From the sequence record PV696613.1: a DNA stretch of 41,103 bases; one strand, given 5' to 3'. The position numbers were made by a program, and so were the translations under genes. Origin of the DNA: Escherichia phage Henuyfy11N. Positions 26,092-26,184 of this stretch are shown one piece after another. Each line of letters begins with the position of its first letter. Position 1 is the stretch's first letter. Below the pieces are notes generated by a model. The model was given only the letters and a program-made list of their open reading frames with translations, was not told the origin of the DNA and ran no database searches.

Positions 26092-26120
26092 ACTATAATA
26101 GCGAACTATTCACTTGTCAA
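26092..26120 (-). promoter_or_regulatory. sigma70-like promoter, family 1 (TTGACA-N17-TATAGT) with AATAG-N4-CTATT dyad
   Basis: minus-strand TTGACAAGTGAATAGTTCGCTATTATAGT, about 30 nt upstream of ORF start 26060; divergent from XRE-regulator promoter. Confidence 0.5.
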
Positions 26121-26144
26121 TGGGCTTTTCTAAAATAATTAATA

Positions 26145-26153
26145 TGGTACTAT
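26145..26153 (+). promoter_or_regulatory. extended -10 promoter (TGgTACTAT) for XRE-family regulator gene
   Basis: TG-n-TACTAT with poor -35; overlaps imperfect AATAT-N4-CTATT dyad; about 30 nt upstream of ATG 26185. Confidence 0.3.
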
Positions 26154-26184
26154 TCACATATCAACTGACTAAGGAGTAATTGAC

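Follow-up and report, generated by a model that had tools for sequence, protein, structure and literature searches.

Divergent promoters and dyads at the XRE gene

The leftward replication module of Escherichia phage Henuyfy11N (sequence record PV696613.1; the whole stretch of 41,103 nucleotides (nt) that was analysed is called the window here) holds a single plus-strand gene, which encodes a 71-amino-acid protein of the XRE family. In the 124 base pairs (bp) between this gene and an acidic 172-amino-acid gene on the minus strand (26061-26184), an earlier note on this DNA had read two back-to-back promoters, each overlapped by a dyad, and had likened the arrangement to a Cro-like switch. The question raised by the locus is whether it is indeed a self-contained switch or one part of a wider control system. 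The 14-bp dyad was found in seven copies in the genome, six perfect and one imperfect, of which five lie beyond this gap and up to 18 kb away from it, and the arrangement looks like a Cro-like shut-off spread over seven promoters and not a bistable switch between lysis and lysogeny. The leftward promoter and its dyad are called PA and OA, and the rightward promoter and its dyad PB and OB.

26092..26120, minus strand: promoter PA (class II, see below), with -35 TTGACA at 26120..26115, a 17-nt spacer and -10 TATAGT at 26097..26092.
26097-26110: candidate operator OA, the perfect dyad AATAG-cgaa-CTATT (AATAGcgaaCTATT), within the PA spacer and touching the PA -10.
26121..26142, minus strand: AT-rich stretch resembling an UP element, reading TTATTTTAGAAAA, then GCCCA, then TTGACA, upstream of the PA -35.
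26145-26153, plus strand: promoter PB, the extended -10 TGgTACTAT (TGGTACTAT) with a canonical TGn and no recognisable -35.
26109-26136, plus strand: TTCACT-16-TAAAAT, an alternative to PB that matches the consensus at 9/12 positions.
26141-26154: candidate operator OB, the imperfect dyad AATAT-ggta-CTATT (AATATggtaCTATT), over the -10 of the XRE promoter.
26185..26400, plus strand: gene for the 71-amino-acid XRE/Cro-type helix-turn-helix (HTH) protein (Pfam HTH_3), the candidate repressor.

PA matches the sigma-70 consensus at 11/12 positions, a score that a consensus scan of positions 1-40000 returned for only one other promoter, at 20330. All ten arm positions of OA obey the two-fold symmetry (AATAGCGAACTATT; centre 26103.5). 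The AT-rich stretch occupies the spot where a -35 of PB would be, and by our reading it agrees with the UP-element consensus (Estrem et al. 1998) at 12 of the 14 specified positions. With TTGACA, the 17-nt spacer, TATAGT and this upstream stretch, PA appears to be built for very high strength. The extended -10 of PB is located 32 nt 5' of the XRE start codon (ATG, 26185), which has the ribosome-binding site AAGGAG 8 nt ahead of it; with an extended -10 only, PB is probably a weak promoter. OB keeps 9/10 arm positions (AATATGGTACTATT; centre 26147.5), and its single mismatch, G to T, generates the TG of the extended -10. The centres of OA and OB lie 44 bp apart in the window, and a repeat search recovered the two as a 25-nt direct repeat, 80% identical and spaced by 44; the same search did not return them as inverted repeats because their arms are shorter than its 6-nt seed. 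The two promoters, the perfect dyad on the first, the imperfect dyad on the second and the distance between the centres were thus as the earlier note had described them, and an HTH_3 domain was confirmed in the product of the lone plus-strand gene.

Dyad copies at other promoters

The window was searched with the pattern AATAGNNNNCTATT, allowing at most one mismatch, and 100 shuffled sequences served as the control. This search resulted in 11 matches where 1.0 was expected, a number that none of the 100 shuffles reached, and perfect copies of AATAG-N4-CTATT numbered six against 0.03 expected. When palindromes with 5- or 6-nt arms were counted without reference to this motif, AATAG-N4-CTATT ranked first both by copies and by the ratio of observed to expected, G+C-rich terminator stems aside. 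All copies of the dyad in the window stand in a promoter-like context, and this context takes one of two architectures. If the promoter reads TTGCAC-17-TACTAT with the dyad over the spacer and the -10, it was categorized as class I (four copies, at 7838, 29586, 31040 and 26141); the member at 26141, which is the XRE promoter, has no -35 and carries the TG extension in its place. If the promoter reads TTGACA/T-17-TATAGT with the dyad in the spacer abutting the -10, it was categorized as class II (three copies, at 26097, 23960 and 20307). The class II copies are all on the minus strand within the replication module, and their promoters at 26120 and 20330 score 11/12 while that at 23983 scores 10/12. 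The five copies beyond the gap are the following.

7838..7851, minus strand: class I dyad; -35 TTGCAC at 7867..7862 and -10 TACTAT at 7844..7839, driving 7810..7484.
20307..20320, minus strand: class II dyad; TTGACA at 20330, 17-nt spacer and TATAGT ending at 20302, driving 20267..20013 and the helicase gene.
23960..23973, minus strand: class II dyad; TTGACT at 23983, 17-nt spacer and TATAGT ending at 23955, driving the single-strand-binding protein gene 23897..23268.
29586..29599, plus strand: class I dyad; TTGCAC at 29570-29575 and TACTAT at 29593-29598, driving the first rightward early gene (ATG 29633).
31040..31053, plus strand: class I dyad; TTGCAC at 31024-31029 and TACTAT at 31047-31052, driving a small gene from 31082.

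TACTAT is the -10 common to the class I promoters, and the sequence they share extends past the dyad (TTGCACACCCCAA..TAATAGG.TACTATTCAC). The register of the dyad relative to the -10 differs between the two classes, which argues that the arms cannot be reduced to -10 hexamers. One short, over-represented site at multiple promoters is what a dispersed operator would look like.

The promoter at the class I dyad 7838-7851 may be bidirectional. In the region 7828-7867, TTGCAC-17-TACTAT points leftward to 7810..7484, and GTTACA-17-TATATT (9/12) points rightward to 7975..8391, whose counterpart is the tail assembly chaperone gene in the syntenic records of phages SP-031 (gp52) and St162 (gp54).

Conservation among Kagunavirus phages

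A 1.5-kb query taken round the divergent promoters matched 476 phage records, essentially all of them from the genera Kagunavirus or Jerseyvirus (subfamily Guernseyvirinae), with Escherichia phage hz69 at 97.5% identity, and the window phage is a Kagunavirus. Phages of these two genera are virulent siphophages of about 42 kb. Conservation was examined in a related set of 37 Kagunavirus loci with 10-kb flanks (638,617 bp) and in 35 distinct Kagunavirus versions of the gap.

These loci contain 162 perfect dyads where 0.6 was expected, with invariant arms and 24 different central tetranucleotides. The dyad stands in the class I or class II register with a 17-nt spacer in 136 of the 162 cases, and most of the other 26 are class II with an 18-nt spacer. 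No direct or everted arrangement of the arms at N4 was found in the related loci, only the inverted one. At OA, the arms are invariant in 37/37 loci and the central 4 bp occur in six forms. OB reads AATATGnTACTATT in 37/37 loci, mismatch included, and its imperfection appears to be functional as well as conserved because the fixed G-to-T change makes the TG of the extended -10. Fixed arms around a drifting centre are characteristic of a site that is bound by a protein with two-fold symmetry.

Both promoters, of sigma-70 type by the hexamers and 17-nt spacing of PA and by the extended -10 of PB, are conserved as well. Both PA hexamers are retained in the 35 distinct Kagunavirus sequences with a spacer of 17 or 18 nt, and the AT-rich stretch at 26121..26142 is nearly invariant. 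A 1-bp insertion or deletion among the 35 gap versions shifts the distance from the dyad to the -35 and keeps that from the dyad to the -10; because of this change the spacing of OA and OB is 44 or 45 bp among relatives, and cooperative looping between the two sites was judged unlikely on that account.

A variant with a 6-bp spacer, AATAG-N6-CTATT, occurs at 11737, 15055 and 30815 in the window (three copies against 0.03 expected) and once in the 37 related loci.

Other lineages of the subfamily

Thirteen Jerseyvirus loci were retrieved, of which six were scanned for the dyad and 12 upstream regions were aligned. Jerseyvirus Ent1 carries the dyad as TAATAG-N4-CTATTA in four perfect copies (0.01 expected) at orthologous promoters, and the same dyad sites were present in 6/6 scanned loci. 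At the position of PB, Jerseyvirus has a complete class I promoter for its XRE gene, TTGCGT-17-TACTAT, and this favours TACTAT as the XRE -10.

The AATAG-N4-CTATT dyad is absent from the Cornellvirus-type phages SP-031 and St162. These phages have the AT-rich motif TAWTA-N6-TAWTA in seven copies (0.08 expected) at equivalent promoters, and at the three sites read (14066, 26544 and 33280) the right half of this motif is the -10 hexamer TAATAT. With the centres aligned, the Cornellvirus and Kagunavirus half-sites differ at one position. The Cornellvirus-type XRE gene heads the helicase-primase operon in one rightward unit (SP-031 11098-13749; St162 9779-12685). The helicase-primase block has the opposite orientation in Kagunavirus and Jerseyvirus, so that the XRE gene stands alone and convergent to it.

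Further lineages were sought and set aside. St162, named a 'Kagunavirus' and carrying a Cornellvirus-type XRE gene, was considered as a mosaic test case, but its whole genome is Cornellvirus-like and it provides no independent test. Klebsiella phage klb_E, considered as a fourth lineage, is unrelated save for its XRE match and has no enriched dyad. A scan of bacterial genome contigs for co-variation of protein and operator returned seven loci only, one of them a Jerseyvirus contaminant and the others unrelated. The 18,987-bp contig NZ_JACVEL010000022.1, from an assembly of Taishania pollutisoli (Bacteroidota), encodes an XRE protein identical to that of Jerseyvirus Ent1 behind an identical 160-bp upstream region and is probably phage contamination of that assembly.

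A third type of promoter was noted at 33849-33882 and 40846-40880. It reads TTGACT-17-TATATT or TAAGCT, with only the CTATT half-site beside the -10 and with AATAG or ACTAG immediately 5' of the -35, and it is also present in Jerseyvirus, at about 40915 in Ent1 and as AATAGTTGACTAGT in the scanned loci. Such promoters may escape the dyad-binding protein.

Candidate dyad-binding proteins

The XRE protein matches Pfam HTH_3 over residues 11-65 with 49 bits against a cut-off of 23 (E-value 6.5e-13). Its top matches in the Protein Data Bank (PDB) are phage 434 Cro and the 434 repressor; the best, 434 Cro, aligns end to end with an E-value of 1.7e-6 and has the same 71 amino acids in length. With HTH_3 at 11-65 of 71 residues, the protein is a single DNA-binding domain, lacks a C-terminal S24 peptidase or oligomerisation domain and is in this respect Cro-like, not CI-like. 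The sites of 434 Cro are 14-bp dyads, to which it binds as a dimer, and the XRE protein would therefore fit the dyad in geometry. Within Kagunavirus the HTH with its recognition helix does not vary, not even in a variant of only 78% identity, and among the small early proteins of Cornellvirus the XRE protein alone gives an above-threshold HTH match. In the RNA sequencing (RNA-seq) data of the relative K1B4, gene 004 (XRE) is placed among the middle genes, from coarse sampling over several infection cycles. We regard the XRE protein, acting as a 434-Cro-like dimer, as the most likely binder of the dyad, a prediction to which we give about an even chance.

Several observations weigh against this assignment. 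The XRE recognition helix is SQGAINQL in Kagunavirus versus SQSLITHL in Jerseyvirus, a difference at four exposed positions, and the two proteins share 49% identity overall, yet the dyad is identical in the two genera. The two Jerseyvirus sites that flank the XRE gene are the weakest in that genus, with the OA mismatch AATCG in 12/12 aligned regions and a degenerate OB. The Cornellvirus motif occurs both inverted and direct, which makes it weaker evidence for a dimer site, and in the subfamily as a whole both the binding of the dyad and the activity of the promoters are predicted from sequence. The remaining observations concern a second phage protein.

28965..29168, minus strand: gene for a 67-amino-acid excisionase-like HTH_17 protein (Pfam HTH_17; PHROG 66), first in the leftward early operon and the rival candidate.

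Homologues of the HTH_17 protein occur only in Kagunavirus and Jerseyvirus, which are exactly the lineages with AATAG-N4-CTATT. Between these genera the HTH_17 protein has 82% identity and an invariant HTH segment, compared with 49% identity for the XRE protein. This co-distribution and conservation make it a real rival to the XRE protein. The dyad would then be an operator bound by the HTH_17 protein, and the XRE gene would be its target or the XRE protein would act on some other, lineage-specific site in the gap. The leftward early operon, with the genes for the HTH_17 protein, a 77-amino-acid protein and the helicase-primase, is driven from a promoter (29196..29168) that has no dyad, a point in favour of the HTH_17 protein, and in the K1B4 RNA-seq data, with the sampling described above, gene 008 (HTH_17) is one of four early-peaking genes. 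An early-made repressor of replication promoters would, however, be an odd design in its timing, and a related motif exists in Cornellvirus despite the absence of the HTH_17 protein there. Small HTH_17 or MerR-like winged-helix proteins that lack a dimerisation helix, among them Xis, TorI and BldC, usually bind as monomers to direct repeats in head-to-tail order, whereas the dyad is strictly inverted; no significant solved homologue of the HTH_17 protein was found, which leaves a dimer model unsupported. We consider binding by the HTH_17 protein possible, if somewhat doubtful. The excisionase-like gene appears to have no integrase partner.

Alternative explanations for the dyad

The dyad might need no dedicated regulator if the 14-bp motif were part of a duplicated and optimised cassette for the host polymerase, kept for promoter strength (through the context of the -10 and the shape of the spacer) and by descent of the promoters from one another as copies. 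All copies lie inside promoters with the right arm overlapping or abutting the -10, and the class I promoters are alike well beyond the dyad, as copies would be. The Cornellvirus equivalent, moreover, is not a strict palindrome, and passages of the papers on phages fBC-Eco01 and VB_EcoS-Golestan report the PHIRE motifs simply as repeated 20-mers. The details of the dyad fit such a cassette poorly. Its register to the -10 differs between the classes with both arms fixed, and sequence change is free in the centre (4 bp) and in the flanks but not in the arms. The left arm falls in the spacer, where sigma-70 reads little sequence. Perfect two-fold symmetry at a single spacing would also be unexpected for an asymmetric promoter element, and we think this explanation unlikely.

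Both phage proteins, which are unrelated to each other, might instead act on the same dyad in the core of the seven host-type promoters and time the infection across the virulent subfamily, the HTH_17 protein early and the later-peaking XRE protein afterwards, in a CI/Cro-style antagonism without lysogeny that would be left over from a temperate switch; PA and PB would then form a commitment point through occlusion and the weakened self-operator. This proposal is speculative and we rate it as quite improbable.

A host factor of E. coli or Salmonella, or another phage protein such as a NinH-like one, could also bind the dyad. The dyad is kept across phages of two host genera while the XRE protein diverges, and weak NinH-like and MarR-like matches were found among the small phage proteins. 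Compared by eye, the ARG box and the sites of CRP, IHF and Fur are unlike the dyad, and the phage itself offers two good candidates within 3 kb; we regard this as very unlikely.

Two narrower ideas were rejected. A loading site for an AlpA-type antiterminator was suggested by the position of the dyad between -35 and -10, like that of the AlpA element, but the AlpA protein of Pseudomonas aeruginosa is larger, consists of multiple helices and recognises an asymmetric 6-bp element in monomeric form, and the HTH_17 protein, at 67 amino acids, shows no such relationship in its Pfam and PDB matches. For the XRE protein, CATTATTCGCAATG at 29175-29188 in the HTH_17 promoter was considered as another operator, but this second dyad is not conserved in Jerseyvirus or fBC-Eco01.

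Proposed mechanism

Under the XRE reading, the dyad would be the common operator of a phage-wide regulon of seven promoters, which serve early accessory genes and the XRE gene itself (class I) and replication genes (class II). Leftward transcription from PA would cover the acidic gene and that part of the replication module which contains the exonuclease, and rightward transcription from PB the XRE gene. Both positions of the dyad would block RNA polymerase when occupied, and for this reason we infer that the dyad-binding protein is a repressor. As it accumulated, early and replication transcription would be turned down. The perfect OA would be filled first, so that PA and the other promoters with a perfect dyad would be shut, and OB, with its one mismatch, would be filled last, at a higher level of repressor, capping the synthesis of the XRE protein. 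The starts of PA and PB would lie about 75 bp apart, so the polymerase footprints should overlap; a strong PA should therefore occlude a weak PB, and the silencing of PA should free it. For the model as a whole, a regulon of seven promoters under an XRE-type repressor, we see the chances of its being right or wrong as about balanced; promoter activity, repression, order of filling and identity of the binder are all predicted parts of it.

The Cro-like switch proposed in the earlier note holds in one part, as the regulator is of Cro/C1 type with 434 Cro as its best match. The self-contained switch of two operators did not hold, as the dyad is found on five further promoters. Nor does the gap contain the elements of a CI/Cro switch: the divergent partner of the XRE gene encodes an acidic protein without an HTH, there is no second repressor, and the gap has two sites only. 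The statement that the phage shows no lysogeny genes agrees with passages of the fBC-Eco01 and Golestan papers, in which integrase and other lysogeny genes are described as absent, and no integrase is annotated in the records of the relatives fBC-Eco01, Ent1 and SP-031.

Comparison with known systems and published readings

The closest likeness is to phage 434 Cro, as both are 71-amino-acid single-domain proteins with a Cro/C1-type HTH and, in the XRE case as a candidate only, a 14-bp two-fold symmetric site lying over promoter elements. Also shared with the Cro proteins of 434, P22 and lambda are a site on the promoter of the regulator itself and the predicted role of turning down early transcription. 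The half-site of 434 Cro is ACAA with arms of 4+6+4, whereas the phage dyad has AATAG in arms of 5+4+5. Unlike the 434 system, this one has no partner CI, no OR and OL arrays of three sites and no integrase annotated in relatives, and the predicted binding would involve single sites over seven promoters.

The C1 operators of phage P1, the conserved inverted repeats of phiC31 and the stoperators of L5 are sites for the prophage-maintenance repressors of temperate phages, and those of P1 and L5 are asymmetric. They resemble the dyad in being a short site repeated round the genome at or near promoters, through which one protein acts on many units. In contrast, the phage here is virulent, and its sites are strict dyads, each inside a promoter core. 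The controller (C) proteins of restriction-modification systems, such as C.AhdI and C.Esp1396I, are XRE-family dimers of about 70-80 amino acids that use strong and weak palindromic sites at their own promoter to produce a concentration-dependent delay and then self-limitation. The perfect OA and the imperfect OB parallel this logic of strong and weak sites. C proteins, however, activate from the strong site and act on their own operon only, whereas both dyad positions here predict repression and five more promoters are involved. Repressors and operators of this kind are already known, so the architecture, tidy as it is, is unsurprising in principle.

The motif itself has been reported before. 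In the fBC-Eco01 paper, the PHIRE motif tgAATAGTa-ccTATTat-T, which is the same motif as the dyad, is ascribed in the passage concerned to a phage RNA polymerase, and the 'phage promoter 5' of that phage is the OB/PB site ahead of the HTH gene. The corresponding passage of the VB_EcoS-Golestan paper lists seven promoter sequences obtained with PHIRE. Neither of these passages mentions the dyad symmetry, the two architectures or a link to the HTH genes. The records of fBC-Eco01, Ent1 and SP-031 contain no annotated RNA polymerase and the motif lies between host-type -35 and -10 elements, and the reading as promoters of a phage RNA polymerase is unsupported. In the literature searched, no regulator or start-site experiments on the subfamily were found, and the sole RNA-seq study found is at gene level.

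Gene neighbourhood

The surroundings of the gap contain two further features that bear on PA and PB.

25542..26060, minus strand: open reading frame of the acidic 172-amino-acid protein, function unassigned (PHROG 3127), the first gene downstream of PA.
26389..26409, plus strand: intrinsic terminator 3' of the XRE gene; its T-run is confined to the plus strand.

The acidic protein is 75% identical to its counterpart in Jerseyvirus Ent1 and gave no Pfam match and no HTH. The terminator at 26389-26409 separates the convergent XRE gene and helicase-primase gene (26418..28676, minus strand). Because its T-run is restricted to the plus strand, leftward helicase-primase transcripts may traverse the XRE gene antisense and continue into PA; such read-through could add a layer of convergent transcription to the control of the XRE gene.

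No known RNA families (Rfam) were found in 25000-31500. About 400 bp at 29200-29580, from the leftward early promoter (29196..29168) to the class I promoter (29570-29598), contain no convincing gene and have hairpins at 29300-29322 (minus strand) and 29477-29497 (plus strand), neither with an Rfam match. This region could house an origin, a small RNA or additional control sites.

Several replication proteins share acidic C-terminal tails, namely the helicase-primase (26418..28676, minus strand; ...ATEEDLE), the DUF2800 exonuclease (23988..25244, minus strand; ...VSEEDLE) and the 77-amino-acid protein (28735..28968, minus strand; ...ATLEDLE), and the single-strand-binding protein (23268..23897, minus strand) has DDLEDDEEDE internally. 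The tail is retained in Jerseyvirus Ent1 (...GDLE, ...EEDL and ...PEDLE) and, in looser form, in Cornellvirus. The tails resemble a docking peptide by which these proteins might all reach one partner, for example the DNA polymerase.

Implications

The analysis corrects the published reading of the repeated motif as a promoter for a phage polymerase. If the model is true, the wiring described here, with its seven promoters of two architectures, its weakened self-operator and two proteins as candidate regulators, would explain how these phages shut off early and replication transcription without an RNA polymerase of their own. Phages of Kagunavirus and Jerseyvirus are widely isolated for use in phage therapy and in the biocontrol of food, and they have been proposed as small chassis for synthetic biology. 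The XRE genes would also account for the 'repressor' annotation in many such lytic phages, which is relevant to safety assessments that flag repressors as signs of temperance.

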